From IMG/VR virus record IMGVR_UViG_2585427760_000005: a stretch of DNA of 20,784 bases; one strand, given 5' to 3'. The DNA is from a virus (taxonomy: Duplodnaviria; Heunggongvirae; Uroviricota; Caudoviricetes). This document shows positions 2,155 to 20,784 of the stretch, in pieces (within the stretch, counting starts at the first letter, position 1; every line of letters starts with the position of its first letter). The notes beneath the pieces are model-generated. The model saw only the letters and a list, made by a program, of their open reading frames with translations. It did no database searches and was not told where the DNA came from. The position numbers were made by a program, and so were the translations under genes.

Positions 2155-2778
2155 TTAATTATTACTACACCCAAACGATCTATAACCGTCATCAAAGTTC
2201 TTGCTTTTCACTTTGGTGAGATAATCAATTCGATTCAGTAAATCGTCGGGATAAATATCATTAAGAATATCATCACGATTCAGGGTATATTTACCATTAG
2301 AAGGATACTGTACTAGGTGCTGTCCCTCTTCGGGAGTTATACTTAATGCGCTGCACCATGCCGAGGTGATCATAGTTCTTAACGTATCTTCATCAAGATT
2401 GAAATCCCCTAAGTGGTAGTAAGCATCCTTGTTCAGAAACAGAAATACGTGAAAATGACGCTTACCATTCTGGGTAAATTCCCTCACCCACGCATAGCGG
2501 AGCGTATTCGGGTGTACCCGTTTACCTTCTTTACGCTTGCGCTGTTCATCTGCTGCCAGTTTGGCTTTCAGTGAATTGGTAAATCTTGATATAGATCCTG
2601 AATCAGTATTAGCGATACAGGAAATAGTATCACCATTATCCAGCATAACCGGGTCATGCAGATCCACCCGTATTGCCAGTGTACGTCCGTGTTCTTTAAC
2701 AGATTTTGTAATAACATCGATAATCCTTTCTTTGTATGATTTAACATGACTGCCATACTCGCTATCGTAGATATTCAT
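2155..2778 (-). CDS. YagK/YfjJ-family protein (CP4-type prophage-island protein of unknown function)
   Basis: 207-aa ORF with a GGGGTG RBS 8 nt upstream. It sits downstream of the alpA/yfjI-like genes as in E. coli CP4-57, and its size matches YagK-like members. Family assignment is by synteny and recollection. Confidence 0.55.
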   Translation of the reverse strand: MNIYDSEYGSHVKSYKERIIDVITKSVKEHGRTLAIRVDLHDPVMLDNGDTISCIANTDSGSISRFTNSLKAKLAADEQRKRKEGKRVHPNTLRYAWVREFTQNGKRHFHVFLFLNKDAYYHLGDFNLDEDTLRTMITSAWCSALSITPEEGQHLVQYPSNGKYTLNRDDILNDIYPDDLLNRIDYLTKVKSKNFDDGYRSFGCSNN

Positions 2779-3002
2779 AATAATTCACCCCTCGATGGAT
2801 AACAGTCATCGCATTACTGGCTATGGCCTACTAGTGATATATATACAGGCATGGTTAATTGCAATATAATAACTATCCGACACTGAATTTTAGAAAAATA
2901 GTAGCCACAGCCTACGATGACTGATTGAAAGTTACTCTTTAATTAGTTGTAATGAAGATAGGTTAATAAAACAATTATTGCGTCCTATCTTTGTTCTGTT
3001 CG

Positions 3003-4415
3003 TTATATAAGAATATCAACAGGTTGTATGAAAATGGTTTTCCCTATCTTCTCCGCCCGTATTTTCTTTTGCGAATAAAGTGTACTGAGAAGCTCATTCG
3101 CTTTGCTCCGATTCCTGAACCGGTTCGGACCATATTGCAAGATGGTTGTCTTCCTGATATATGGCACCACACACCGGTAGCAATAATCTTTTATCCACGA
3201 ATAAAGTTCATCTGCTTCTGAACTAACCAACAGCAACGTCTGGGGTTTAGAGAAAATTCTCACATACTCATCCACATACCAGGCGCTTATCTCTACTGCG
3301 GCTTCTACGGCACTGAGGGGTATATCCCCTTCATCACCATTAAATTTATGCAGCAGAGCGGCAATCCTTGCCATATTTTCCGCCATTTTAGAGGCGTAAT
3401 CCTTAAAGCCAGACAGGAAGCCAATCAACCCCATTTCTGACTCGACCTTGTTATAAAATTCGATCCAGTTCTTTTCGGCTTCTGCAGAGAAACGTAGGCA
3501 CTGACGCGCATTTTCATCATTTCTGACAATGCTCTCGTTAACGATCTCCATCAATCGTTTATGAAATACCGGTAGATGCTCGCTTGATATAACCGGGCTG
3601 GTAATTTGTCTGTAACCCTGTGTTGAACTAGGCTGACACATCAAACACCGCGCGAAGAATCCGATCCCTTTCGCTGTATCGCCTTTACGCTCCAGATACC
3701 CTTTTTTGAACACATCAGGCTGAACCATCAACGACAGTGTCATTCTGGCGTCTTTGATTAATTTATCTGGCTCGCTTTTTCTTTCCACAGTAAACATTGC
3801 GCCATCCCACATTTTATTGATGAAAGGCAGTTCATTCAGCGCATAGCCGTTAAAAATGGTACCAGCTTCATCAGACATAAGCCCGATGGACCGCCAACAA
3901 CCACTGAGATAGTCTTTTATCGCCGCTGGTGTGGCATCATTGAATATCTGCCTGAACCTGACCGGTGCTTTCGGGTTCGCCGACAGCAGCGTTTTCAGCC
4001 GTTCATTCGTTGTGGAGTGATCTTTGTTACGGCGAATATCTGATTTCAGTTTTGATATCAGGGCTTTCTTTTCAATGTTAAAAGTCGTTTCCTCATTCCG
4101 CCAGATAATTAAATCTTGGGTATATTTTTCAAAGCATGCTTCTTCCAGTTGATACAATGGCTTCATTAGCAGTTTGTCCACCGTGCTTTTGCGTTCACCA
4201 GAATCCGCCAGTGTCAGTAAAAAAAGTGATACTGGGCTGCGCAGATTATTCAGTCGGCACACATCAATCCGGTTCTGGCAGGCAAGCGAAATAACCCCCA
4301 ACACCGATGCAGCAATCAAAGCCTGGGGTGCCTGCGTATGCTGTTCCACTTCATAAACCGCATTTCTGATGATCTGCGGGAAGACATGTACAGGGAAAGG
4401 ACGACCACACGACAT
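3003..4415 (-). CDS. yfjI: YfjI-like DUF3987-domain protein (primase/replication-associated protein of integrative islands)
   Basis: 470-aa ORF with a GAGAGG RBS, immediately downstream of alpA on the same strand. Size and position match E. coli YfjI (469 aa) of CP4-57. Confidence 0.65.
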   Translation of the reverse strand: MSCGRPFPVHVFPQIIRNAVYEVEQHTQAPQALIAASVLGVISLACQNRIDVCRLNNLRSPVSLFLLTLADSGERKSTVDKLLMKPLYQLEEACFEKYTQDLIIWRNEETTFNIEKKALISKLKSDIRRNKDHSTTNERLKTLLSANPKAPVRFRQIFNDATPAAIKDYLSGCWRSIGLMSDEAGTIFNGYALNELPFINKMWDGAMFTVERKSEPDKLIKDARMTLSLMVQPDVFKKGYLERKGDTAKGIGFFARCLMCQPSSTQGYRQITSPVISSEHLPVFHKRLMEIVNESIVRNDENARQCLRFSAEAEKNWIEFYNKVESEMGLIGFLSGFKDYASKMAENMARIAALLHKFNGDEGDIPLSAVEAAVEISAWYVDEYVRIFSKPQTLLLVSSEADELYSWIKDYCYRCVVPYIRKTTILQYGPNRFRNRSKANELLSTLYSQKKIRAEKIGKTIFIQPVDILI

Positions 4416-5820: not shown

Positions 5821-7062
5821 TCATCCTACAAGACGTATTCCCCTAACCCCACTATTCACGATACTGCCGCTATCTGCTGCTTTAACAAAATCAGCCCACC
5901 ACTGCATCATCGGTCGTCGTTGCTCAAGATAGTCACTTCGATTGTAAGCGCGACGTACCTCATTCTTATCTACATGAGCAAGTGCAGCCTCAATAACATC
6001 AGGCGGAAATCCTTCCTCATTGAGTGCCGTACTGGCAATAGAACGTAAGCCGTGTGAAACGAGTACGCCTCCTAAACCAGCACGCTTAAGGGCTGCATTT
6101 ACTGTCTGGCTGTTCATCGGCTGGGTAGGCTTAATGCGACTGGGAAAGATAAATTCTCGACCACCGCTGAGAGACTTCATTATTTCCAGAATAGCGAGAG
6201 CTCCATCAGATAATGGAACCGTATGCTCCCGATTCATCTTCATTCGAGCAGCTGGAATTTTCCATTCGCTAGCATCGAAATCGATCTCATCCCATCGAGC
6301 CTCAGCAGCTTCGGCAGGGCGGGTGATGGTGAGAAGCTGCCACATGAACAGGCATCGTGTGGACAGGCTGATACTTGCCGTACGCATAGTCTGCATTAGC
6401 TGTGGAAGTTGACCTGGGTGGATGCTTGGCATGTTTTTCTTTTGCGGTTTCTCGAATGCTTTCCCGATGTTTACGCTGGGAACCGCATCAATCAGGCCTG
6501 TGTTCTGCGCATAAATCATGACTTCGTTAATACGCTGACAAAGGCGGCGGACTGTCTCTAATGCACCTCTGGCCTGAACCGGATGAACTGCTTTAACCAA
6601 AGTATGAGCCTTAATCTCAGTGACACTGATATCACCGATTGCCGGGAGAACATCCCTCTCAAGCGAGCGCCAGATATCGTCGGCATAGTCCTCTGTTACG
6701 CTGGCTTTCTTCACATTCCACCAACGCTCGGCAACTAACCGGAAAGTGTTGGTTTTGGCCTCTTGAGAATTTCTCACCTGTTCTTTCTGATGTTCCTGAG
6801 GATCAATGTCTTTCGCCAACAAAGCTCGAGATTCAGCTCTGAGTTTACGCGCATCAGAAAGGGAGACGGCTGGATAGGCTCCGAAGCTCTGCTTGGTTCG
6901 CTGCTTGGTCAGAGGTCGATAGTAACGGAACTGCCAGAGCTTACTACCGCTGGACTTGATTAGCAGAGTAAGCCCGTCACCATCATACAGCTGGTAATCG
7001 GCATCTTTAGGTTTGGCGGCTTTGATTTCCGTATCGGTTAACGGCTTGGTTTTTCTTGCCAT
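5821..7062 (-). CDS. intA: Tyrosine integrase, P4/CP4-57 IntA type (DUF4102 N-terminus plus phage-integrase catalytic domain)
   Basis: 413 aa from MARKTKPLTDTEIKAAKPKD, with a GGAG RBS about 8 nt upstream of the ATG at 7062. The C-terminal region has the R...HxxR...Y catalytic pattern (HGLRSIAST...AHVD...RRAY). Lies next to the ssrA att fragment as intA does in K-12. The track start at 7098 falls inside an upstream hairpin and is less likely. Confidence 0.85.
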   Translation of the reverse strand: MARKTKPLTDTEIKAAKPKDADYQLYDGDGLTLLIKSSGSKLWQFRYYRPLTKQRTKQSFGAYPAVSLSDARKLRAESRALLAKDIDPQEHQKEQVRNSQEAKTNTFRLVAERWWNVKKASVTEDYADDIWRSLERDVLPAIGDISVTEIKAHTLVKAVHPVQARGALETVRRLCQRINEVMIYAQNTGLIDAVPSVNIGKAFEKPQKKNMPSIHPGQLPQLMQTMRTASISLSTRCLFMWQLLTITRPAEAAEARWDEIDFDASEWKIPAARMKMNREHTVPLSDGALAILEIMKSLSGGREFIFPSRIKPTQPMNSQTVNAALKRAGLGGVLVSHGLRSIASTALNEEGFPPDVIEAALAHVDKNEVRRAYNRSDYLEQRRPMMQWWADFVKAADSGSIVNSGVRGIRLVG

Positions 7063-7185
7063 GGGGAGTCTCCATGCGTTTAGGCCCAACGAAAACAATA
7101 GAGCTTTTCGTTGGGCCTATCAATGGGCCTAAAAGGTTCGGATTTAATTAGTTCTCTTCGGACTTCGCGGGACAAATTCAGGGCA

Positions 7186-7219
7186 CAAAAAAGCCCGCAG
7201 GGCTTGCGCCGTGCGGGCT
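7186..7219 (-). terminator. Rho-independent terminator downstream of the ssrA 3' end (8-bp GC-rich stem plus T-tract on the minus strand)
   Basis: Stem AGCCCGCA (7192-7199) pairs with TGCGGGCT (7212-7219). On the minus strand it is followed by TTTTT (complement of 7186-7191). Confidence 0.6.
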
Positions 7220-7265
7220 CTTAGGACTTCATCGGATGACTCTGGTAATCACCGATGGAGAATTT

Positions 7266-7310
7266 TGGTGGAGCTGGCGGGAGTTGAACCCGCGTCCGAA
7301 ATTCCTACAT
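7266..7310 (-). other. ssrA: 45-bp fragment identical to the 3' end of ssrA (tmRNA); attachment-site core duplicate, not a complete tmRNA gene
   Basis: Minus-strand sequence ATGTAGGAATTTCGGACGCGGGTTCAACTCCCGCCAGCTCCACCA matches the tmRNA 3' end (T-arm and CCA). Sequence 5' of it (beyond 7310) has no tmRNA similarity. Confidence 0.8.
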
Positions 7311-7426
7311 ACCATTTTTATACTAATAAAAGCATACATTTACTTTTAAAATCATCACCTTATTGTTTTTTGTGTTTGTCGGGTTTTATGTGATTTTAAG
7401 TCCTTGCCGCCAAAATGCCGCCATTA

Positions 7427-8618
7427 TTACTTATCCTCGATGGCGTCATACTCAAGCAAGTTATCCATACACTTCTCGAGTTTGTAGAAGTCGGTGAGGG
7501 GATAGAGGTGAACAATACTATCGTCAAAATTCTTGATCCCTGACAGGCGCTCAGTGCGTCTCAAAAACCTTGACGCTGACTTTACTTTGTCTCCCTCATC
7601 CGGCTCGCATGTGTATTCTAGTGTTTTGAGTACTTGCCAAGATACGGGAGGAGTTAGCTTAAACATTTTAATTAATTTTGGACAAAAATCCTTTGAGATA
7701 GTTTGTTGGTAAGTAACTTTTGGTGGGAGTACAACGTTGATTGACTTGTCTCCATCATTTGTTTTAACCATTTTAGTTGATCTGTAAGCGATACCAACAA
7801 TGTTAGAATTTCCTCGGCGGCTGATCCATTGCATTAATAAATTAGGGATGATGTATTCCTGAGTAAACGATGTGCTGCTATTTTTTTTTTCTAAAGTTAC
7901 AAGCATAAATTAAAGGCATCAAACAAATATATGACATTTTTGTAAGATATGGCATTTCGTCGTCATTAACTATGCCATAAAATCGTGAGTATAGAATTTC
8001 GGAAGTGAAGTCTAATATTTTAGAATCCTTTTCATTTGATGAGTAAGAGGATATATATAATTTATCAAAGTCTGGCTTATCCATTTCCAGCCAGCAGACA
8101 TACAAGGAAGAGCCAAGATATAAGCAGGGTAAGCCTGCAACAGAGTATCTTTGCGCATTGACTAGATGCCGCATAGAGAAAGGAATATGAAACATCTCTT
8201 TTCTATCTTTTATAGATGAGTCGGATTTTCTGACCCGGAAAAGAGGCTTGGATTCGTTGCATATCTTATTAAGTGGCGTGGATATGTGGTGAATATAACG
8301 AAATGTTGCATTGTCAGAAAATGTACTGTCAAAAATGTCATACGCTGATTTTATGTCACCAGATAAAAATTTTTCCAAGGAAAGTACTATGCCAAAATAT
8401 ATCTCACTTATTTTTTCTAAACGTCGGCCAATTCTCTTGGATAATTCATTGTCATTGTTTTCAGCATAGTCATTTATAATGTTGAAGTAGATTTGACATT
8501 TATTCTTGAAATCACTGATTATGTCGGACTCTACCGTAAATGGTAAGTTTAATCTTTTTTCTTTGACTGTAAGTGAAAATATTTTATTTAAGCCGTCAGA
8601 TAAACTCTCGCTTCCCAT
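7427..8618 (-). pseudogene. AT-rich gene with RES-domain-like motif (candidate NAD-targeting toxin/defense effector), split into 246-aa and 159-aa ORFs by a +1 frameshift in an A10 homopolymer (T10 at 7881-7890 on the + strand)
   Basis: ORFs 7878..8618 and 7427..7906 overlap by 29 nt in adjacent frames. ORF1 ends ...NFRKKK* inside the A10 run, and a run of A9 would read ...RKKNSSTSF... straight into ORF2 for a roughly 400-aa product. The motif FRVRKSD...RYSVAGLPCLYLGSSLYVCWLEM resembles the RES-domain core. An AAGGA RBS overlaps the stop codon of the upstream integrase. Confidence 0.45.
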
Positions 8619-8627
8619 TTTTTATCC

Positions 8628-9650
8628 TTACGAATAGTTTAATGAATGGAGTGGGTTCTTTGTCACCGCATCCTCAAGATGATCTGGTGCAAAATGGGCA
8701 TATATCATCGTCATTTTTATATCTGCATGGCCTAGGATATCGCGCAGCACAAGGATGTTTCCACCGTTCATCATAAAGTGGCTGGCGAAAGTATGTCGCA
8801 GTACGTGTGTGCATTGGCCCTCAGGTAAATCGATGCCTGCCCGTTTTACCGCACGCTCAAAGGCTTTTCTGCATGGCGTGAATAACTTCCCTCGATTCTT
8901 TGGTAGTTCGTCATACAGAGCCTGCGATATAGGTACGGTCCGGTTTTTCTTACCTTTGGTTTTGGTGTACGTGATTCGGTATTTTGATAACTGATGGCCC
9001 TGCAGGTTTTCGGCTTCACTCCAGCGGGCGCCGGTCGCTAAGCAAATTTTTGCAATCATCAGCAGGCTGGGGCTTTGAGAATTGGCGCAGGCATCCAGCA
9101 GGCGCTTAATTTCTTCCGGAGCAAGGAACGCCAGTTCACCTTCTGCGATCTTGAATGTTGGCAGTCCGGCGAGCGGGTTGGGTGCGGACCAGTGGCCCAG
9201 CTTTTTCAGCGTGCCAAAAACTGATGATAGGTTTCGCTGTTCCAGGTTTACCGTGCGGGGCTTAACCGGTGACATAAGCACGCCATCTTCATTTTTGACC
9301 TCACCTTTTAGGCGCGCTTCACGGTATTTAGTAAAGTCTCCAGCAGTCAGCTCTGAGGCAATGGGATCACCCAGTCCATTACAAATAATGCTGAGTTTCG
9401 CCATCAGGCGCTTAGGGTCCGCAAGAGTCTGCCCGTAAAGTGAATGCCATTGTTGAATCACTTCTGACAACTGACGCCTATCATCCTTTTCACCTAACCA
9501 TGGCTTTTTGTTCACTTCATCCATTGTGAAGTTTTCAAATGCTATAGCTTCGCCTTTCGTCGCAAATTGCTTGCGTACGCGTTTGCCATCGCGCCCGCTA
9601 GGGTAGCACTCGCACAACCATTTTCCGTTTGGCTGTTTTCTTATAGTCAT
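8628..9650 (-). CDS. int: Tyrosine integrase, P2/186-family phage type
   Basis: 340-aa product. N-terminus MTIRKQPNGKWLCECYPSGRDGKRVRKQFATKGEAIAFE and C-terminal ...ATGARWSEA...HVLRHTFASHFMMNGGNILVLRDILGHADIKMTMIYAHF follow the P2 Int pattern as recalled (P2 Int is 337 aa). Confidence 0.85.
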   Translation of the reverse strand: MTIRKQPNGKWLCECYPSGRDGKRVRKQFATKGEAIAFENFTMDEVNKKPWLGEKDDRRQLSEVIQQWHSLYGQTLADPKRLMAKLSIICNGLGDPIASELTAGDFTKYREARLKGEVKNEDGVLMSPVKPRTVNLEQRNLSSVFGTLKKLGHWSAPNPLAGLPTFKIAEGELAFLAPEEIKRLLDACANSQSPSLLMIAKICLATGARWSEAENLQGHQLSKYRITYTKTKGKKNRTVPISQALYDELPKNRGKLFTPCRKAFERAVKRAGIDLPEGQCTHVLRHTFASHFMMNGGNILVLRDILGHADIKMTMIYAHFAPDHLEDAVTKNPLHSLNYS

Positions 9651-9652
9651 GT

Positions 9653-10285
9653 TTAGAGGCTCTTGATCACTTTTACAGCACGTCCGATAGCTTCAATATC
9701 ATCTACTGAGCATTCAAACGAAGATTCATCCTGATGGACCGCTAATTTGTTTCCTGGAAGCCGTGTTAATTTCACGATGCTTTTAACCCCATCAATATCA
9801 ACGAGCCATAGTCCATTTGTAATCTGTTTCAGTGATTGATCGACTACATAACTTTCATGAGCATTGTTGACGAATAAACAGTGAACAGGTTCATTCGGGA
9901 GAATGCTGTGATCGAGGTGAATATCCTCATTATCAGTTAAGCAGCCATTTTCTAGCGTTACTTGCTTGATCGATGGCGCGACAAGCTTTGCAAGAGGTCG
10001 AATTGTAGGTGAGGTCTCATTTTGAGGTTTTTTTACAGCCTCGTTTTGAGCGTACATCTCACCATGGCCAGTAGCCAACCACAGTAAAGAAACCCCCGTT
10101 TCGAGCGCGCACTGAATTACCCAGTCAGCAGGGAAGCTATCACGTAACAGTCTGTTTGACATAGTGCTTTTTGAAACGCCAAGCTGCTCACTTAGAGCCT
10201 GCTTTGTCTTAAGCCCATAAGCCTTTTGCAGCCGATCGATAGCTTCTCTACCCCCTGAATCGGCACCCATTGAAATACTCGCCAT
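9653..10285 (-). CDS. cI: Phage CI-type immunity repressor (186 CI-like, HTH N-terminal domain)
   Basis: A GGAG RBS 7 nt upstream supports a start at 10285 (MASISMGADSGG...). The segment AYGLKTKQALSEQLGVSKSTMSNRL...CALETGVSLLWLATGHGE is HTH-like and resembles 186 CI. Located between int and a divergent apl-like gene. The track start at 10375 would run through the operator region. Confidence 0.7.
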   Translation of the reverse strand: MASISMGADSGGREAIDRLQKAYGLKTKQALSEQLGVSKSTMSNRLLRDSFPADWVIQCALETGVSLLWLATGHGEMYAQNEAVKKPQNETSPTIRPLAKLVAPSIKQVTLENGCLTDNEDIHLDHSILPNEPVHCLFVNNAHESYVVDQSLKQITNGLWLVDIDGVKSIVKLTRLPGNKLAVHQDESSFECSVDDIEAIGRAVKVIKSL

Positions 10286-10406
10286 TGAAAAACTCCGTTT
10301 GACAACCTTGAATCGGGATCGTAATGTTGCGTTGACTCTTGAATTGAGGTCTTGAGAGTCGACATAAAACGACATAAAACGAATCTAAACCGAGAGATAC
10401 TGCACT
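10286..10406. promoter_or_regulatory. Lysis-lysogeny switch region between divergent cI and apl-like genes; contains an exact 10-bp tandem direct repeat GACATAAAAC x2 (10361-10380)
   Basis: Intergenic region between the divergent repressor and early operon, with the tandem repeat visible in sequence. Promoter and operator positions were not resolved. Confidence 0.4.
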
Positions 10407-10652
10407 ATGAGCACTGAGATTTCAATTCGTGTACCAAAAGTGATAGCGACGCCAGCCGAATTTGCTGAATGGGAAGGCTATTCCCGTGGTTCGGTTTATC
10501 AGATGATTCATAACGGTAAACTGGCTAACTACATTGAAAAGAAAGAAAAAAACAAAGGCCGTGTATTCATCCTTTACCTTAAGTACAAAAAGGAGCAAGC
10601 GCGTAAAAACATGGACCAATCAGCCTTTAACTACAACGTAGTTGTCGGTTAG
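10407..10652 (+). CDS. Apl/Cox-like small excisionase-regulator (first gene of the early lytic operon)
   Basis: 81-aa ORF divergent from cI, basic C-terminal half, in the position of 186 apl / P2 cox. Confidence 0.55.
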   Translation: MSTEISIRVPKVIATPAEFAEWEGYSRGSVYQMIHNGKLANYIEKKEKNKGRVFILYLKYKKEQARKNMDQSAFNYNVVVG

Positions 10653-10687
10653 TAAGTTCAATTATGAGAACTTTCTAAGGGGGTTAC

Positions 10688-11197
10688 ATGTTTGATTATA
10701 AGATTTCCAAACATCCGCATTTTGACGACGCTTGCCGCGCTTTTGCGTTGCGTCACAACATGGCGAAGCTGGCAACCAGCGCCGGAATGAACGTCCAGAC
10801 TCTGCGCAACAAGTTGAACCCGGACCAGCCGCACCAACTGACGCCGCCGGAAATCTGGCTGCTGACTGATATCACTGAGGATTCCACGCTGGTTGATGGT
10901 TTCCTGGCCCAGATTCACTGCCTGCCGTGTGTGCCGCTGAATGAAGTGGCAAAAGAAAAAATGCCGCAGTACGTCCTCAAAGCCACTGCCGAGATCGGCC
11001 GTGTTGCTGCAAGTGCGGTTTCAGGTGTTCAACTGAACGCGACCACCCGCCGCCAGGTTGTTGAAAGCGTCAATTCTGTTACCCGTCTAATGGCTCTTAC
11101 CGCTATTTCACTGCAGGCGCGGTTACAAGCTAACCCGGCAATGGCCAGTGTTGTCGATACCGTGACGGGACTTGGCTCTTCGTTTGGGCTGAGCTGA
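10688..11197 (+). CDS. cII: CII-like regulatory protein (phage 186 CII type)
   Basis: 169-aa ORF with an AAGGGGG RBS, immediately after the apl-like gene. 186 CII is 169 aa as I recall. Call rests on synteny and size. Confidence 0.6.
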   Translation: MFDYKISKHPHFDDACRAFALRHNMAKLATSAGMNVQTLRNKLNPDQPHQLTPPEIWLLTDITEDSTLVDGFLAQIHCLPCVPLNEVAKEKMPQYVLKATAEIGRVAASAVSGVQLNATTRRQVVESVNSVTRLMALTAISLQARLQANPAMASVVDTVTGLGSSFGLS

Positions 11198-11198
11198 G

Positions 11199-11405
11199 GT
11201 GTATATGCTGAACAATGAACCATCTTTTGCATCACTGCTTGTTAAGCAAAGCCCGGCCCCGCACTACGGTCACGGCTGGATCTCTGGAACGGATGGCAAG
11301 CGCTGGCATCCATGCCGCTCGCAGGATGCGCTGCTGGCTGACCTGTCCACATCAAAACAGGGGAAACCATGGCTATTGAAGGCGATGCTGCGACTGTTCC
11401 GCTAA
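11199..11405 (+). CDS. Hypothetical small early protein (fil/dhr region of 186-like phages)
   Basis: 68-aa ORF with a GAGGTG RBS. Confidence 0.45.
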   Translation: MYMLNNEPSFASLLVKQSPAPHYGHGWISGTDGKRWHPCRSQDALLADLSTSKQGKPWLLKAMLRLFR

Positions 11406-11710
11406 GTGCTGGCCTCCGCCTTAATGGGTTAAACCACATCGCGGAATTAAGGGCGAAAGTGTTTGGCTTAAATACTGATTCAGAACTAGGGCGCTTTATT
11501 AGCGATATGCGGGACCAACGGGATATTAACCATGAGCAGAATAAACGCGCACTAGCCGCAATATTCTTTATGGCAAAAATTCCGGCGGAACGTCATAGCG
11601 TCAATGTTAGTGAGCTGACGACTGACGAAAAGCGGGAGCTGATTAAAGCAATGAACCATTTCCGTACAGTGGTGAGCTTATTTCCAACTCGGCTAGCCAT
11701 GCCGAATTAA
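11369..11710 (+). CDS. Hypothetical early protein
   Basis: 113-aa ORF overlapping the previous ORF by 37 nt in another frame. Start is uncertain. Confidence 0.4.
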   Translation: MAIEGDAATVPLSAGLRLNGLNHIAELRAKVFGLNTDSELGRFISDMRDQRDINHEQNKRALAAIFFMAKIPAERHSVNVSELTTDEKRELIKAMNHFRTVVSLFPTRLAMPN

Positions 11711-11777
11711 CCAACCACAGAAATTAAAGGCGTAAACCCGCCGGGCATTCCTTTGCTCAAATTCAGGAGAACGAACG

Positions 11778-12011
11778 ATGCGAAATATTGAAACCCGAAT
11801 CACCAAAAGCGGCCCAGATGATGCTGGCCTTAACCAGCTGCTGACGGATGCGCGTATGGAAGAACGCCGCGCACGTGCTGCTGCAATGGCTGCCCGCCTC
11901 GATAGCCTGGCTAGCCGTATTACTTCCCGTCAGCTTAACCATGTTGAGGCGGCAGAGCTGCTGCGTGTCGCAGCTGAAAACATCCAGAACGAAGCGCAGG
12001 AGATCCACTGA
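11778..12011 (+). CDS. Hypothetical early protein (Ala/Arg-rich, probably helical)
   Basis: 77-aa ORF with an AGGAG RBS. Its stop overlaps the next start (TGATG). Confidence 0.5.
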   Translation: MRNIETRITKSGPDDAGLNQLLTDARMEERRARAAAMAARLDSLASRITSRQLNHVEAAELLRVAAENIQNEAQEIH

Positions 12012-12238
12012 TGGCTGATTCTATGGACCTTGTACAGCAGCGCGTTGAAGAAGAACGCCAGTGCCATATCCACCACGCCCGCAGCCGAAAGGCTGGGGCT
12101 TCTTCTCTTGAGTGCGAGAGCTGCGAAATTGTCATTCCGGCAGAACGCCGTGCTGCAGTTCCGGGCTGTGATCTTTGCGTAACCTGCCAGGAAATTGCAG
12201 AGCTGAAAGGCAAGCATTACGTAGGGGGTGCTGTATGA
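12011..12238 (+). CDS. TraR/DksA-family C4 zinc-finger protein
   Basis: 75-aa product with CxxC...CxxC (CESCEIVIPAERRAAVPGCDLCVTCQE), the pattern of phage TraR-like proteins. Confidence 0.6.
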   Translation: MADSMDLVQQRVEEERQCHIHHARSRKAGASSLECESCEIVIPAERRAAVPGCDLCVTCQEIAELKGKHYVGGAV

Positions 12239-12519
12239 CTACCGAGAAACTGACTAATCCGCTGACTGATAGCGAATTATCGCGACTGATTTGGGGCCTG
12301 AAAGCGGAAGGGTTTCACCCGCGCCTATTGGCTGGCTTAGTAGAGCTGCAGCAGCGCCGTCAGGCCAATGCAGAGATTGATATGGCACCAATAAAAATTC
12401 CTCCTGCCGTATTCGATTTGATTTATCAGGAATGCGAGGGGTTTGTAGATTGTCCAGCCAATCCTCAAGTGATTTGGGAAGCCTGCCGTGCAGCGATGCT
12501 GAAAGGCGGTGCTGAATGA
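12235..12519 (+). CDS. Hypothetical early protein
   Basis: ATG at 12235 overlaps the upstream stop (ATGA). About 94 aa. The track start at 12175 lies inside the previous gene. Confidence 0.5.
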
Positions 12520-12815
12520 ATATCAAAGCCCATACCTTAAAAATTGCACCGAAACACCTTAATGATGTTATGGCGGGGAAAAAAAAAGCTGAATTAAGAC
12601 GGGATGATGATCGCGGTTATAAAGCCGGTGATGTTCTTGTTTTGTGTGAATGGAAACATGGCAAATATACCGGGCGCGAATGGACGGCTGTAATCACTCA
12701 TATCCTGCCAGTTTGCGACGTTATTAATAATGTTGATGGCTGGGTGATGCTCTCTATTCGTTCACTGAATCCAATTGATGCAATGTTCTATATGCTTTCA
12801 GGAGGTGCTGCATGA
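12516..12815 (+). CDS. DUF3850/ASCH-like small protein
   Basis: 99-aa ORF, ATGA-coupled to its neighbours. The pattern [24 protein letters not shown]...GDVLVLCEW resembles DUF3850 (ASCH-fold) proteins. Confidence 0.45.
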
Positions 12816-13657
12816 GCACCATCCTGAAATGGGCTGGCAATAAAACTGCCATCATGCCGGAATTGAAAAAACATCTGCCAGCAGGCCAGCGCCTTGTTGA
12901 ACCTTTCGCGGGTTCGTGCGCTGTCATGATGGCGACAGACTATCCTCATTATCTTGTCGCAGATGTTAATCCTGATCTGATAAATCTGTATCAAGCAATT
13001 AAAGATGACGTTAACGGATTTGCTCACTTGGCTGAGCGGGTTTTTTCTAAGTTCACAACGGAAGAAGCCTATTATAAATGCCGTCAGTATTTTAATACTG
13101 CGCCTTTGGATTACATGGACAAGGCGGCTTATTTTCTTTTCCTTAATCGCCATTGTTATCGCGGGTTATGCCGTTATAACCAGCGCGGCCTGTTTAACGT
13201 CCCGTACGGTAATTACAAAAAACCTTATCTGCCCGTTAATGAAATACGTGCATTTGCCGAAAAGGCAAAGCGTGCCACCTTCATTTGCGCCAACTATGAG
13301 GAAACATTGGCAATGCTGCAGCCGGGGGATGTTATCTACTGCGACCCTCCGTATGACGGTACATTTTCCACTTACCACACTGACGGATTTACTGAGGATG
13401 ATCAGTATCATCTGGCGTCTATCCTTGAACGTCGCTCATCAGAAGGTCATCCGGTCATCGTGTCCAATAGCGACACATCCCTGACCCGTTCACTTTATCG
13501 TAATTTTACCCACCATCGCATCACTGCAAAACGCAGCATGGGCGTGGCTGCCGGTGAAGGTAAATCTGCAGCTGAAATCATCGCGACGAAATCAGCTGTT
13601 TGCTTCGGTGTAGATCTTGCCAGCTGTACAAACCGTTATGTTGAGGTGCGCGTATGA
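12812..13657 (+). CDS. dam: DNA adenine methyltransferase, Dam family (orphan, phage-encoded)
   Basis: 281 aa with [48 protein letters not shown] and the catalytic DPPY motif ([10 protein letters not shown]), collinear with E. coli Dam. Confidence 0.88.
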
Positions 13658-14973
13658 ACCATTCCGCAGCAGTAATTGTGCCTACAGATATCAGTGTGAT
13701 GGTTCGTGAAATAGAGGTTTCATACAACCACTTTCTGAATGAATTTCGTATTCCAGCTGATCACAAAATTGTCGTTAACTTCTCTGCCGGAAAAGACAGC
13801 ACGACAACAGCGGCAATTGCACATCATCTTTTTGGTGATCGCGTACAAAACGTAATGGCTGATACAGACAATGAACATGAATTAACCGTCGACTTTGCGC
13901 GAAATATTCATCATCAAATTGGTTGTAAGCCTGTGCAGATAGTTAAGCGTATATACACCGAGGTTGAATTTGAACGTCGCCGTAAATCGCTTAATGAGCG
14001 CTGGTCAAAGCGTCAGGCGATCCGCATGGGCGCTTATCGTGGCGTAATTATGCCATCACTGGCGAGATCAGATACCAAATTTGGTCAGGAATGGCTACGT
14101 ACTGCTGAACGCTGGGGGATTCAGTTTGAAACGGCTCTGGAGGCTGCTCTTTCAGTCATGCACCCGACTGGTAATAGCTTTCTCGATGCCGCTCTGTTGC
14201 ACGGCAAATTCCCGATGATGCGCGATCGCTTTTGTACTGATGAACTCAAGATTCAAATCGCGTTCGATGCGGCAATAAAACCACTTCTTGATGATGGTGA
14301 GGTGGTCGTTCAGTGGTCTGGAGTGCGTGCAGATGAGTCCGACAAACGCGCCGGTTACGCAAGATTTGCACACGATGAACGCGATCCAAACTTTCTCTAT
14401 AACTTCCTGCCAATCCATAAATGGACGGCGGCTAATGTTTTCGCCTTACATAAATATTTCGGTATTAAACCAAACCCACTTTACCTGCAAGGCGCTGACC
14501 GTGTTGGCTGCATGAACTGTGTTTTATGTACCAAAGAAGAAATTGCGCAGACTGCAGCACGCTGGCCTGAGCATATCGAAAAACATCATGAGTGGGAGAA
14601 AAAAGTACGGCTGGCATCGCGCTGGGTTCACTGGATGAGCATCGGCACAGTTAGCCAGTCATGGATGCGTGCTCAGTTAGGCGTTAGAGATGTTATCCGG
14701 TTTGAACTCGATGAAGTGACGGGAGAGGAAGTAGCGCGACGTAGGCGCTATCCAGTCAATCTAGGCCAGAATGTGAAACTGTATGGACTGGAGCCAGATG
14801 TTCAGCACATCGACTGGTCAGGATTCTATGGTCCGCGTGGAAATATGGGGGCTCCGTCAGCGCTTGATGTTGTCGAATGGGCCAAGACTGGTCGTGGTGG
14901 CAAGGTCTACGACTTAGTCAAAGCCAGTATGGACACTTCAGTGTGCTCATCACGATATGGTCTTTGTGAATGA
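13654..14973 (+). CDS. PAPS-reductase-like (PP-loop ATP pyrophosphatase superfamily) protein, phage-encoded; possible DNA-modification enzyme
   Basis: 439 aa with the PP-loop motif [10 protein letters not shown] near the N-terminus and a cysteine cluster (CMNCVLC) later. ATGA-coupled to dam upstream and to gene A downstream. Confidence 0.65.
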
Positions 14974-17387
14974 GCTTTTATCCATGGAACGCGCCAAAAA
15001 AGGCGATAAATCCAAACACGGACCCGGCGGAAGTTGCGCCGGTGTCCGCGCTTTCAAACCTGATTACTCTGTATGCCGCTGATAATGAGCAGAACCAGCA
15101 GCGCCGGGAAGAAATGAGTGATGAGGTCTGGGAACGCTATTTTTATAACGAAGCCCGTGATCCAGTTCTGCGTGAAATGGAGCAGGACCGGCTGATCAGT
15201 GGTGCCAAAATGGCACGCGAGCAGCAGAGGTTTAACCCCGATCTGGTCATTCTGGCAGATGTAAGCGCCGAACCATCACACATCAGCAAACCTCTGCTTG
15301 AGCGCATTAAATATTTCCATAGTCTGGGCCGTCCACAGGCTTATTCCCGTTATCTGCGTGAAACCATCAAGCCATGCCTTGAACGGCTGGCGCGTGCGCG
15401 TGACAGCCAGGTGTCTGCTTCATTCCGATTCATGGCTAGCCATGAAGGGCTGGAAGGGCTGCTGGTTCTGCCTGAAATGAATCAGGATCAGGTCAAACGC
15501 CTATCCACGCTGGTTGCGGCTCATATGAGCATGTGTCTGGAAGCTGCCTGCGGTGATCTCTATTCCACTGACGAAGTGAAGCCGGAAGAAATCCGCCAGG
15601 CGTGGGAACAGGTTGCAGCGGAGGCGATGCGCCTTGATGTTATCCCGCCAGCGTTTGAGCGTCTGCGCCGTAAGAAACGCCGCCGCAAGCCTGTGCCATA
15701 TGAGCTTATTCCCGGTTCGCTGGCGCGTATGCTGTGCGCGGACTGGTGGTATCGCAAATTGTGGCAGATGCGCTGTGAATGGCGCGAGGAGCATCTGCGC
15801 GCGGTATGTCTGGTTAACAAAAAGGCATCGCCGTACGTTAGCTATGAGGCGGTGATCCATAAGCGTGAGCAGCGCCGCAAATCGCTGGAGTTTTTCCGTT
15901 CGCATGAACTGACCAATGAGCAGGGTGATACGCTGGATCTGGAAGATGTGGTAAACGCCAGCGCCAGCAACCCGGCCCATCGCCGTAACGAGATGATGGC
16001 CTGTGTGAAAGGGCTGGAGCTGATCGCGGAAATGCGCGGCGACTGTGCTGTATTTTACACCATCACTTGCCCGTCACGCTTCCACGCCACGCTCAACAAT
16101 GGCAGGCCAAATCCGAAATGGACCAGCGCCACAGTACGACAGAGCAGTGATTATCTGGTTGATACGTTCGCGGCTTTCCGTAAGGCCATGCATAAAGTCG
16201 GGTTGCGCTGGTACGGTGTGCGAGTGGCTGAGCCTCATCATGATGGCACTGTGCACTGGCACCTGCTGTGCTTTATGCGCAAGAAACACCGCAAAGCTAT
16301 CACGGAACTGCTGCGCAAGTTTGCCATTCGTGAGGATCGCGAGGAGCTGGGAAACAATACCGGGCCGCGCTTTAAGTCCGAGCTAATCAATCCGCGCAAA
16401 GGCACGCCAACCAGCTACATCGCTAAATACATCAGTAAGAATATTGATGGGCGCGGCCTGGCTAATGAAGTCAGCAAGGAAACCGGCAAATCATTACGCG
16501 ATAACGCGGAGAACGTGAACGCCTGGGCATCACTGCACCGCGTCCAGCAATTCCGCTTTTTCGGTATTCCAGGTCGCCAGGCTTACCGCGAGCTGCGCCT
16601 GCTGGCGGGCCAGGCTAAACGCGACCTTCCGCCATTAAAACCCGTTCCCGGGAAACCTGAATTGACGCCAGAGATTCTGGCGGCCCTTGCAAATGCGCGG
16701 CCTGTTATCGGCAATCCGCGTCTTGATGCTGTGCTGGCTGCGGCTGATGCCGGTTGCTTTGCCACTTACATCATGGCGCAGGGCGGCGTGCTGGTCCCTC
16801 GCAAACATCACCTGGTCAGAACGGCCTATGAGCTGAACGATGAGCCGAGCGCCTACGGCGATCATGGTATCCGTATTTATGGCGTCTGGTCCCCTATTCA
16901 GGAAGGGCGAATTTGTACGCACGCGGTGAAATGGAAAATGGTTCGTAAGGCCGTTGACGTTGACCTGCCGGAGGCGTCAGCCGACCAGGGCGCTTGCGCC
17001 CCTTGGACTCGTGGCAATAACTATCCCCTTGTGGAAAATCTGAACAATTCAGACGCTGAAACAGGGGGGAATACTCCAGATATAACCGTTATGGATGAGC
17101 AGGAACTGCAGGAGTATCTGCACGGCATGGGAAGAAAAGAGCTTAAAGAGCTAAACACCCGTTTACGCCTGGTAAAACCGAAGCGCCGCAAAGGATATAA
17201 ACAGGAAATTGACGGGCAACAGCGGCTGCAGCTGGGTTATGAGCTGCAGTCCAGGGGCTTTGATGGCAGTGACAACGAGATCGATTTGCTTCTGAGTGGC
17301 GGCAGTATTCCATCCGGGGCAGGGCTGCGCCTTTTTTACCGTAACCAGCGGCTGCAGGAAGATGATAAATGGCGTCAGTGGTATTGA
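14970..17387 (+). CDS. Replication initiation endonuclease (P2 gpA family, rolling-circle nickase)
   Basis: 805-aa ORF as the last gene of the coupled early operon. Contains the paired-tyrosine motif YIAKYISK (Y-x3-Y), typical of P2 A-type nickases. Size is comparable to P2 A (761 aa). Confidence 0.8.
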
Positions 17388-17465
17388 TTTTACTGACGAT
17401 TTGATCGCCATCAGAACTATCTACTTGAAACTAAAAAAGAGTTTTACAATTCGAAATAACAGTTA

Positions 17466-17485
17466 TACTGTATATGTATACAGTA
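17466..17485 (+). promoter_or_regulatory. LexA (SOS) box TACTGTATATGTATACAGTA overlapping a putative promoter (TTTACA at 17443-17448, TATACT at 17464-17469)
   Basis: CTGT-N8-ACAG palindrome with 19 of 20 matches to the consensus TACTGTATATATATACAGTA, located about 30 nt upstream of a strong RBS (AGGAGG) and the ATG at 17517. Confidence 0.65.
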
Positions 17486-17516
17486 TTTGTTGGTGGTAGT
17501 AGAGATAGGAGGGAAA

Positions 17517-17705
17517 ATGCAGGATTACCTTTTGGAGTCTTTGAAACTCCAGCGTATTGATTTTTTTATCAAGCTTGTAGCGGCTAGTGAATGTAGTGAT
17601 GAAGAGAAGCGACTTGCTATCCAGTGGGTTTCTGAGCTGACGGATGAGTTGATGGCGAAAATCAGGAGTCATGAATACACTCGCTCTATGGATCTTCCCG
17701 GTTAG
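17517..17705 (+). CDS. Small SOS-regulated protein (62 aa) in the position of the 186 tum antirepressor; function unverified
   Basis: AGGAGG RBS 4-5 nt before the ATG at 17517, with a LexA box upstream. The track ORF starts earlier at 17487. Confidence 0.5.
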   Translation: MQDYLLESLKLQRIDFFIKLVAASECSDEEKRLAIQWVSELTDELMAKIRSHEYTRSMDLPG

Positions 17706-17718
17706 CAACAGGAACGTT

Positions 17719-17749
17719 GCTGACGTGAGAATCAGATTCTCGCGTCAGC
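17719..17749. other. 31-bp near-perfect palindrome (15-bp arms, one G-T mismatch, 1-nt spacer) just downstream of the small SOS gene
   Basis: GCTGACGTGAGAATC-A-GATTCTCGCGTCAGC, with a smaller hairpin (AGCAAC...GTTGCT) at 17703-17720 immediately before it. No T-tract on either strand. Confidence 0.35.
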
Positions 17750-17995
17750 GAGGTTGAACAACGAGCAAGGTGAGGTGTTCAGCTTTTAGTGGTTTTTTTG
17801 GTATCAAAGCACTATATGTAGCTATCTGAGCAGTGCCGGTTGAATTACGATCAGTTTTTCTTGTCGTAGTCGCCAAAATGAGATAGATAAACGGTTCCAC
17901 AAGATGTTCGCGACCCGGCATTGTTCTATAATCAGGTCATAACAAAAAGAATTAGCAGCAATGCCACATGTATGTAGGCACAGCGAGGAGGTCGT

Positions 17996-18190
17996 ATGAC
18001 TAAGATTTTTGGAAAAATTATCTCAACCCCAGGTCGATGGATGCAGGGTGTTATCCAGCAAGAGATTGAGCAGTCCAACAACAGTAAAATTACTACTGAT
18101 GCTAATGGTAACGCGGTTCTGAACATGGATAATAAGCAGGTTCGGGAATCAATGCAGGCCAGAATGAAAGAGCTTGCTGCAAAACGTTAA
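17996..18190 (+). CDS. Hypothetical small soluble protein (64 aa), first gene of a two-gene module
   Basis: Strong RBS GAGGAGG 4 nt upstream of the ATG. A TATAAT -10-like hexamer lies about 65 nt upstream. AT-rich. Confidence 0.55.
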   Translation: MTKIFGKIISTPGRWMQGVIQQEIEQSNNSKITTDANGNAVLNMDNKQVRESMQARMKELAAKR

Positions 18191-18199
18191 GGATAAACG

Positions 18200-19006
18200 A
18201 TGGGACCATTGGTCATAATGGTTGTACTTGTATGCGGGTTTTGGTACACAGAGAATCACTACCAATCCCGCATACGCCATGCAAGAACTAACGGCTGGAC
18301 ATCATACTTCTATGTTGCAATGCATGGATGTAAATTTGTCATTCAAGGCTTTGGTTTTATTTTGTTTATATACCTTTCGCTACTTGCAATAAGCCTAATT
18401 ATCTCAATCCCTCACGTATTTTCAGCTTCATACGGAATGAAAGACCTTTATTCATGGCTGACTGAAAAGACGCTCCTTTCCTATCCGATGTTTTTTGTGC
18501 TTTCCATGGCGGTTGCCTGTTTACTTGCTTATGTGGCGGGGGATGTAGCTAGGAAAGCCATAAAAAACGAAGAGGTTAGACAGGCGGCTTATCGTGAAAT
18601 GGCAGCAATGGATGGTGTTGAGTCCCTTTTGGTGCAGGCGATTGATGAAGATATGCTGATTTTTGTAACACTAAAATCGCGCAAAGTTTACATCGGATAT
18701 GTTGCTGCACCTCGTATCGAGCACAGCCACACACAGCATTTAGCGATTATCCCTTACATCAGCGGATATCGTGATAAAGATACCCTGCGCTACCATGAAC
18801 AGCACCGCTACTATGAACTGTATCTGGAAGAAGGAATTGCTGCCAATAAGCATGAGCGTGGGCTGAACCTACAACATTTCCGACATGTGATACCAATGGA
18901 TCAGGTAGAAGCTGTTTCATTGTTTGATACACATACCTATGTGTCATTTGACAACTACTCTGTGCCAGAGAAATCAGAGCAGGACACTCAGGATACTACT
19001 GCATGA
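18200..19006 (+). CDS. Hypothetical membrane protein (268 aa; 3-4 predicted N-terminal transmembrane helices plus a roughly 150-aa soluble C-terminal domain)
   Basis: AAGGA RBS 9 nt after the upstream stop. Hydrophobic stretches LVIMVVLVCGFW, FVIQGFGFILFIYLSLLAISLIISI and MFFVLSMAVACLLAYVAG. Followed by a terminator. Confidence 0.6.
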   Translation: MGPLVIMVVLVCGFWYTENHYQSRIRHARTNGWTSYFYVAMHGCKFVIQGFGFILFIYLSLLAISLIISIPHVFSASYGMKDLYSWLTEKTLLSYPMFFVLSMAVACLLAYVAGDVARKAIKNEEVRQAAYREMAAMDGVESLLVQAIDEDMLIFVTLKSRKVYIGYVAAPRIEHSHTQHLAIIPYISGYRDKDTLRYHEQHRYYELYLEEGIAANKHERGLNLQHFRHVIPMDQVEAVSLFDTHTYVSFDNYSVPEKSEQDTQDTTA

Positions 19007-19054
19007 CTATGCCGCATGAATCCGCATGATCGTTTGAAGATCGTTTTAGCTGAG

Positions 19055-19079
19055 GCCCGCTAGGAATGGCGGGCTTTTT
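19055..19079 (+). terminator. Rho-independent terminator (GCCCGC / GCGGGC stem, TTTTT tract)
   Basis: GGCCCGCTAGGAATGGCGGGCTTTTT, immediately after the 18200..19006 gene. Confidence 0.6.
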
Positions 19080-19268
19080 CATACGTCATGCAGTTGCATG
19101 AAAACCACTACACAAAGCGGGCAGGCGTGGCGGGGATACGAGCGCGCGCTGGCACTTTGGATGATCGCTTCACCTGTATGAATGACCACCTTGAAAACTT
19201 GATTGTTCTGGACTTAAGTATGTACTTTATATTCGGAATAATCCGAATTGCTGAAAAGGATTCATGTG

Positions 19269-20290
19269 ATGATAGAAGAATTAACGATCAGAAATGCGGG
19301 TTCATATACTGGGCCAGAACAAAAATTGCATGGTTTATCTACATTTAATTATCTTTATGGAGCTAATGGTGCAGGTAAAACTACTATTAGTAAAATAATT
19401 AATGACCCAGATAATTATCCCGACTGCTTAATTCAGTGGAAAAACGCCAATAAGTTAATTAGTTATGTTTATAATAAGGATTTTGTTGACGATAATTTTA
19501 GTCAAGATAAAATAAAAGGTGTTTTTACCCTAGGGAGCGATATTAAAGGTGCACAAGAGAAGTTGATTTTATTAAATGAGGAAAGAAGTAAGCTTCAAGA
19601 AAAAATAACTACTAAACAAAAATTGTTAAAGGGTAGCTCTGATGATGTGGGTGTTATTAATGAACTGATTGAACAAGATAAAACTTTTAAAGACATTTGT
19701 TGGAAGCAAAAGCAAAAGCATGATGAGGTTTTTTTCAAGGCTTTTGAAGGCTTAAGGAACAGTACTGAAAAATTTAAAGCTCGAGTCCTTTCTGAATTCG
19801 AACAGAACACTGCAGCTTTACTACCACTAAGTGAACTTACTGAAAAGTGCCGTACAGTATTCTCGGATGAACTAGTTTCATACACGCCATTATCTATTCC
19901 TAAATTTGATGGGTTTAAATCTATTTTAAATCATGATATATGGCAGGAGAAAATACTGGGGAAAAAAGATGTCAGCGTTGCTGATTTGATTAGCCTATTA
20001 AATAATAGTGACTGGGTAAAAAGAGGTTTGGAATATTTTCACGAATCGAAGCCCACGTGCCCATTTTGTCAGCAGAATGTCAGTGATGATATTTTTCATA
20101 ATCTCTCATCTTACTTTGATGAAACATATAATAAAAAACAACAACTAATAAATAGATTGCTTTCTGAGTATCATAATCATATACAACGCTTAAAATGGGA
20201 ACTTGATAACATTAGGGATGCAAAGTTACCATTTGTCGATATCGAGACATTTGAAGACAAATCTAATATCATCATTTCTCTTTTAATTAG
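19269..20290 (+). pseudogene. ABC-type (AAA_13/RloC-like) ATPase, N-terminal half with Walker A and coiled-coil CxxC hook-like motif; 3' part removed or displaced by an IS5 insertion at 20290/20291
   Basis: MIEELTIRNAGSY...NYLYGANGAGKTTISKII (Walker A), a K/E/L-rich coiled-coil segment, then CPFCQQ. The ORF runs into the IS5 terminal repeat at 20291, so the last roughly 36 codons of the track ORF (to 20399) are IS5-derived read-through. An AAGGA RBS lies before the ATG at 19269. Confidence 0.65.

Positions 20291-20784
<494 letters not shown>

Follow-up and report, generated by a model that had tools for sequence, protein, structure and literature searches.

A 186-like prophage of the P2 family has very probably integrated site-specifically at the 3' end of ssrA, the tmRNA gene, leaving a displaced host fragment beside a CP4-57-family island that was already in place. 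We analysed one stretch of DNA of 20,784 nucleotides, called the window throughout, in which two mobile elements lie in tandem at ssrA. The displaced fragment sets one exact prophage boundary, at 7310/7311. Table 1 collects the coordinates of the features.

We found that the minus strand at 7310..7266 reads ATGTAGGAATTTCGGACGCGGGTTCAACTCCCGCCAGCTCCACCA, which is exactly the last 45 nt of annotated ssrA in E. coli 14EC033, CUWW06 and MG1655. A sequence-only reading of this DNA had placed the last 45 nt of tmRNA, from the T-arm through CCA, at 7266-7310, and the alignment to intact ssrA that it had proposed as a check returned 45 of 45 identical positions for all three genes. Such identity or near-identity to the 3' end of a tRNA or tmRNA gene is the mark by which Islander-type searches recognise a displaced fragment. 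The fragment holds the tail of helix 12, the T-arm, the 3' acceptor strand and CCA; the T-stem (GCGGG/CCCGC) is formed by 7293-7289 and 7281-7277, and the T-loop TTCAACT (7 nt) lies at 7288-7282. A 24-nt piece of the fragment occurs once in the window with up to 3 mismatches allowed and was absent from 100 shuffles. Across 5426 E. coli genomes, the ssrA 3' end matches at 5855 places, so extra copies are common. Upstream of 7310, similarity to ssrA is 24/110, i.e. random, which upholds the earlier statement that the sequence beyond this point is unrelated to ssrA.

Neither ARAGORN nor Rfam at gathering score found a complete tmRNA gene in the window, and ARAGORN called the intact tmRNA gene in two control loci. 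Hence, a full or permuted tmRNA gene was rejected. At a relaxed threshold, the Rfam tmRNA model (RF00023) scored 39.3 bits against a gathering score of 47, with a convincing alignment at the 3' end only. A complete RF00023 gene should reach the gathering score and have a tag reading frame and a tRNA-like domain closed by a 5' acceptor strand; the window holds no such match. Other relaxed Rfam hits (tmRNA_permuted, IsrM, RybB, Trp_leader and others) are well short of their gathering scores and arise from nothing more than the T-arm or the terminator hairpin. ARAGORN, Rfam and alignment together exclude a complete ssrA gene overlapping 7266-7600, the one finding that the sequence-only reading had named as speaking against it. 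We also searched the whole window for a second ssrA-like copy as a candidate distal att of the island and found none. The fragment should not be annotated as a tmRNA pseudogene.

Table 1. Features of the ssrA-associated tandem array, in window coordinates
Feature	Position	Strand	Basis
intA, P4-type tyrosine integrase	5821..7062	-	Pfam Arm-DNA-bind_3, Phage_int_M, Phage_integrase
Spacer from ssrA end to intA (phage B'; P' arm of the IntA island)	7063..7265	-	exact to 14EC033 for 206 nt past the core
Intrinsic-terminator-like hairpin and U-run	7187..7222	-	terminator scan and fold
47-bp att core (O)	7264..7310	-	exact block common to phage attP and bacterial attB
Displaced ssrA 3' end, 45 nt	7266..7310	-	exact identity to three annotated E. 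coli ssrA; unique in window
Int-side arm (P) of phage attP	7311..7426	.	97/110 to Yersinia phage vB_YpM_MLG42 attP, 75/110 to Escherichia phage Cartapus
Cargo gene, in two ORFs, lying between att and int	7427..8618	-	N- and C-terminal parts of phrog_7835
Tyrosine integrase (Int), 186/HP1-type	8628..9650	-	Pfam Int_N and Phage_integrase; 98% identical to MLG42 Int
cI repressor	9653-10375	-	Pfam Phage_CI_repr and Phage_CI_C
Apl/Cox-like excisionase	10407-10652	+	PHROG excisionase / Cox-like
cII	10688-11197		Pfam/PHROG early-region assignment
Replication gene A (GPA)	14970-17387		Pfam/PHROG

The left and right sides of the fragment come from different sources. In 14EC033, where the site is unoccupied (smpB - ssrA - terminator - intA), the sequence is 100% identical to window 6700-7310 (611 nt) and then continues into the ssrA body; compared as attB, it matches the window at 24/110 positions upstream of the core and exactly from the core downstream (251/251). 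The attP of phage MLG42 matches at 97/110 positions upstream of the core, is exact over the core with 10 nt upstream and 2 nt downstream (a 57-bp block) and then drops to 31/128. Likewise, the Cartapus attP gives 75/110 upstream, the same exact 57-bp block and then 34/128. The exact block shared by attB (14EC033) and attP (Cartapus and MLG42) is 47 bp, made up of the 45 nt plus AA. Read from its sequence, window 7264-7426 is the int-proximal host-prophage junction (P-O-B'). This hybrid of MLG42-like attP and 14EC033 sequence agrees with the earlier proposal that a P2-family prophage inserted into the ssrA 3' end. That proposal had also taken the partial ssrA copy as the att core, which is right insofar as attP and attB share the copy and needs correction as to length, the block being 47 bp and not 45.

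Two other readings of the junction were rejected. It is not an unintegrated attP, because island spacer and not the phage P' arm follows the core (31/128), and it is not a random truncation of ssrA, because the breakpoint is the edge of the attP core.

In the free phages Cartapus and MLG42, the gene order is ogr - ORF - attP - (cargo) - int - cI, and attP consists of the int-side arm, the block derived from ssrA and a P' arm that has a terminator of its own. Thus, as an Islander-type definition asks, there is a free form whose attP holds the same gene fragment, together with a P/B hybrid junction. The P arm of the window carries putative arm-type direct repeats, TGCCGCCA, at 7405-7412 and 7416-7423, 11 bp apart; this motif occurs 3 times in the window against 0.8 expected, with two of the occurrences in the P arm. 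As motifs, both P-arm repeats fit the 186-type integrase arm-site consensus, tgccGCCActt (PMC3448106), as predicted for arm repeats of the 186 class.

On its predicted gene content, the prophage is 186-like, of the P2 family (Peduoviridae) and Elveevirus-like. Its early genes, assigned by Pfam and PHROGs, run int - cI - apl - cII ... dam - A, the order of 186-type Peduoviridae, and its late genes lie beyond the window; cI and apl make up the predicted lysogeny switch. Between cII and A are small DUF genes, Dam and a PAPS-reductase-like gene. Int is 1.3 kb from the fragment, so that the integrase sits inside the element and near one end, as in Islander-type elements. By sequence E-value, the nearest solved relatives of Int are chains 1aih and 5c6k, which we take to be deposited as HP1 integrase and as 'Integrase', respectively. 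When complete E. coli genomes were searched for the same prophage with both its ends, the best matches reached only ~82% identity over 54% of 8628-20784.

The sequence-only reading had put the fragment between two integrases. IntA and Int do flank it, with the amendment that a frameshifted cargo gene of ~1.2 kb comes before Int. The two cargo ORFs are 49% and 55% identical to CARTA_33 of Cartapus, annotated 'putative RES protein', and the split is due to a frameshift in an A10 run near 7881-7890; the whole gene would encode ~400 aa. The frameshift could be a homopolymer sequencing error; if it is real, the gene could be phase-variable or a pseudogene. Pfam and PADLOC gave no match for this att-proximal gene. 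The att-int interval (7311-8627) is a variable cargo slot: MLG42 has no gene there, Cartapus and RE2010 have one of 401 aa, CUWW06 has a different one of 343 aa, and ZYS9073 has two.

We noted further genes in the prophage on the plus strand. A 439-aa gene with a PAPS-reductase domain (13654-14973) lies between dam and A, and the equivalent position of the CUWW06 prophage is without it. After A, a 383-aa ORF (19248-20399) matches the PADLOC candidate defence protein PDC-S06 (7.7e-103) over profile positions 1-334 of 732. The match covers the first half only of PDC-S06, and the same holds for Pfam AAA_13; this ORF may be truncated or frameshifted. It occupies the cargo region from A to portal, where CUWW06 has a TIR-domain gene.

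On the other side of the fragment, a terminator scan found a hairpin with a T-run on the minus strand, 3' of the CCA. Folding gave an interrupted hairpin of 14 pairs (11 + 3) at 7222..7189 with a U-run to 7187, and a 133-nt fold over the region has an energy of -52.3 kcal/mol (z = -4.1). As a motif, this G+C-rich hairpin followed by a U-run on the transcribed strand has the make-up of an intrinsic terminator. The spacer contains a second hairpin nearer the CCA, at 7257..7230 (-). These results accord with the earlier description of a terminator on the same strand followed by an IntA-like gene (hairpin and U-run at 7222..7187, intA at 7062..5821); fragment, terminator and intA are all on the minus strand, which that description had not specified.

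We traced the origin of the terminator through the spacer. Window 7066-7310 is 98.8% identical to the ssrA-intA region of MG1655. Only 697 of the 5426 complete E. coli genomes contain the stretch 7066-7265 at a coverage of at least 80%, most genomes matching just the ~45 nt of ssrA, and among the matches listed the stretch always sits between ssrA and intA. In K-12, we located the distal CP4-57 att copy of the last ~14 nt of ssrA (CGCCAGC-CCACCA), and the sequence after it is unrelated to the spacer 7063..7265. Since the stretch is present in 697/5426 genomes, has intA next to it in all the cases listed and does not occur at the K-12 distal att, we conclude that the terminator is an arm of a CP4-57-family island and not ancestral chromosome.

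Excision of CP4-57 reportedly deletes T357 of working ssrA (PMC10107115), so that IntA must cross over somewhere in the final ~15 nt. Hence, everything from there onward to intA, the terminator included, is the island's own arm. On this sequence evidence, the terminator at 7222..7187 is part of the arm with which the CP4-57-family island adjoins ssrA, and it is "native" only in the sense of pre-phage. The label "native terminator" given to it earlier was correct in that the terminator preceded the phage and incorrect in that it is an island arm and not ancestral sequence; the term should be avoided in annotation. The fragment is a compound site, in which the phage POB' core also carries the island attL in its last ~15 nt.

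As a separate observation, the 3' hairpin of the Rfam model for IsrM, a Salmonella island sRNA, aligns with the terminator over 7187-7275 (-) at 32 bits against a gathering score of 376. The alignment points to a homologous island-arm terminator at the end of IsrM; the window itself has no IsrM gene.

The island has the gene order of K-12, with intA, a yfjH-like gene, alpA, yfjI (DUF3987) and yfjJ, as assigned by Pfam and synteny, and it extends off the left end of the window. A P4-type integrase at the ssrA end followed by the alpA, yfjI, yfjJ module is the definition of the CP4-57 family. The stretch identical to the window in 14EC033 and CUWW06 carries annotated intA. Beyond yfjJ, where K-12 has abpA/abpB, we found a 515-aa ORF on the plus strand (518-2065) that weakly resembles SIR2 proteins (PADLOC Aga_SIR2, 3e-6; Pfam SIR2_2 at 1.4e-4, which does not reach the cut-off). 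It is possibly a defence gene.

The far end of the prophage in the window's own genome lies beyond 20784, and we observed the pair of direct repeats in the relative CUWW06. There, smpB and an intact ssrA are followed by an ORF, ogr, D, the tail, lysis and head genes, portal and the TIR gene, and then by A, cII, apl, cI, int, cargo, a 47-bp copy, the terminator and intA. The two direct 47-bp copies in CUWW06 are 32,915 bp apart and enclose a P2-like prophage of 32.9 kb. At the ogr end, ARAGORN called the intact ssrA, which is followed by a phage-supplied terminator.

E. coli ZYS9073 and Citrobacter sp. FP75 have the same int-side junction, with terminator and P4-type integrase. In species-representative genomes, the exact junction pattern had a single match, Citrobacter sp. 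FP75 (NZ_JAFDOE010000002.1). At 2700-3120 of the Citrobacter locus, we noted a 186-like phage arm, the 47-bp ssrA core, a homologous terminator and the start of a P4-type integrase. The tandem arrangement recurs across genera.

We propose the following course of integration, based on what is established for tyrosine integrases with tRNA-like genes as targets. The phage attP carries a copy of the final 45 nt of ssrA, followed by AA. Int (8628-9650) would bind the two TGCCGCCA arm repeats (7405-7423) and the core. Strand exchange would then occur inside the 47-bp block, most likely at the 7-nt T-loop (7282-7288), and the inverted halves of the T-stem flanking the T-loop may serve as core-type sites. 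At the ogr end, a full ssrA would be rebuilt from the host 5' part, the phage 3' copy and a phage-borne terminator. The P' arm predicted at this far end, after the intact ssrA as in the relatives, comprises the AAGGGGTTACG...CCCCTTTTT terminator and GGCGGCAAAATGGCG repeats. What had been the 3' end of the host gene would stay behind as the 45-nt fragment joined to the terminator and intA end of the island. Int together with Apl would presumably reverse the integration. Because the phage crossover at the T-loop is upstream of the island crossover, the phage would land between the gene body and the island, producing a tandem array.

Beyond this role in integration, and compatible with it, the fragment and the old terminator could have been recruited to form the 3' end of the leftward int-cargo transcript and so insulate intA, or could yield a small RNA; we regard such a further role as possible without leaning towards it. 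Int and cargo lie on the same strand and read toward the fragment, so the old terminator probably ends the phage transcript and shields intA. Past the cargo stop (7427), 7222..7187 is the first terminator-like site on that strand, and in the free-phage attP the equivalent position is held by the phage's own ssrA copy and terminator. The IsrM 3' hairpin aligns with the terminator, but 32 bits against a gathering score of 376 makes no IsrM gene, and the cargo gene is frameshifted in the window.

The most parsimonious order of events is island first and phage second. With the opposite order, a 186-like phage would have lysogenised first and a CP4-57-family island would then have entered the displaced fragment. 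The fragment keeps CGCCAGCTCCACCA, the segment of CP4-57 recombination in K-12, and a phage lysogen would present two candidate IntA targets. However, the phage-free ssrA-terminator-intA arrangement is common, with the stretch in 697/5426 genomes, whereas the phage-occupied form is rarer and derived, only a handful of the matches listed running past 7310. Moreover, the island-only 14EC033 is 100% identical to the window over 611 nt, the IntA protein of CUWW06 has the same accession as that of 14EC033, and a T-loop crossover next to an existing island explains the order without an extra assumption. We consider it improbable that the island came second. It is more improbable still, indeed hardly credible, that the fragment is a remnant of an ssrA truncated or deleted by illegitimate recombination, an IS event or misassembly: just part of ssrA is present and the homopolymer frameshift in the adjacent cargo gene could hint at sequence errors, but the breakpoint coincides exactly with the boundary of the 47-bp block of the free-phage attP, the adjoining 110 nt are a phage attP arm and the same junction exists in independent genomes of two genera.

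Site-specific integration of the phage beside a resident island has a possible consequence for ribosome rescue, which we put forward tentatively and rate as rather unlikely. Insertion of the phage moves the island attL onto a dead 45-nt fragment, so that IntA/AlpA excision would scar the fragment only and leave trans-translation intact, uncoupling the 'phage regulatory switch'. This reading depends on the island's distal att, which is beyond the window, and on the ability of the island to excise. If it is true, a later excision of the phage, with its crossover at the T-loop, could return a scarred 3' end to ssrA.

Among the closest known counterparts are SopEPhi and Fels-2 (Felsduovirus, Salmonella), which belong to the P2 family, have a 186-type integrase and use the same ssrA 3' target as the window phage. 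PMC3448106 and Table 1 of PMC10107115 (both citing Pelludat et al. 2003) give both phages as integrating in ssrA without altering it. Their core ends in CGCCAGCTCCACCA, which the window fragment also retains. From the ssrA core through int, SopEPhi and RE2010 DNA are 82-83% identical to the window, and the ends of the RE2010 record carry the same core and a P' terminator. SopEPhi and Fels-2 differ in host genus and cargo; the window phage is closer to Elveevirus phages. The Elveevirus phages Cartapus and MLG42 (Peduoviridae) carry the identical 47-bp block in attP, between an ogr-side ORF and int; unlike the window, they are unintegrated, and next to their core lie the phage P' arm and terminator where the window has island sequence. 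In the cargo slot, Cartapus has an intact 401-aa gene where the window has a frameshifted one, while that of MLG42 is empty. Coliphage 186 has the same int-cI-apl-cII layout, an attP whose long core rebuilds the RNA gene, and direct arm repeats with the consensus tgccGCCActt, but its target is a tRNA-Ile gene, whereas that of the window phage is ssrA.

For the island, CP4-57 of K-12 is the reference. In K-12, it abuts a complete ssrA, whereas the window island abuts the 45-nt fragment only, and a SIR2-like gene holds the position of K-12 abpAB. Excision of CP4-57 in K-12, driven by AlpA/IntA, inactivates tmRNA and switches ribosome rescue to ArfA.

Williams's 2003 article 'Traffic at the tmRNA gene' reportedly deals with tandem elements at different sublocations of ssrA. 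By the Islander principle, a regenerated target gene and a displaced 3' fragment mark the ends of an island (PMC4383910; Hudson, Lau and Williams 2015), and in tandem arrays each element has its own integrase and fragment, with the tmRNA gene as the most enriched target (PMC4383910). Both the displaced-fragment signature and tandem elements at ssrA are already well described and of textbook standing, and the window is one more instance of an Islander-type tandem array with no difference in kind. What would go beyond the textbook is that, in such arrays, a CP4-57-type excision switch would act on a dead copy.
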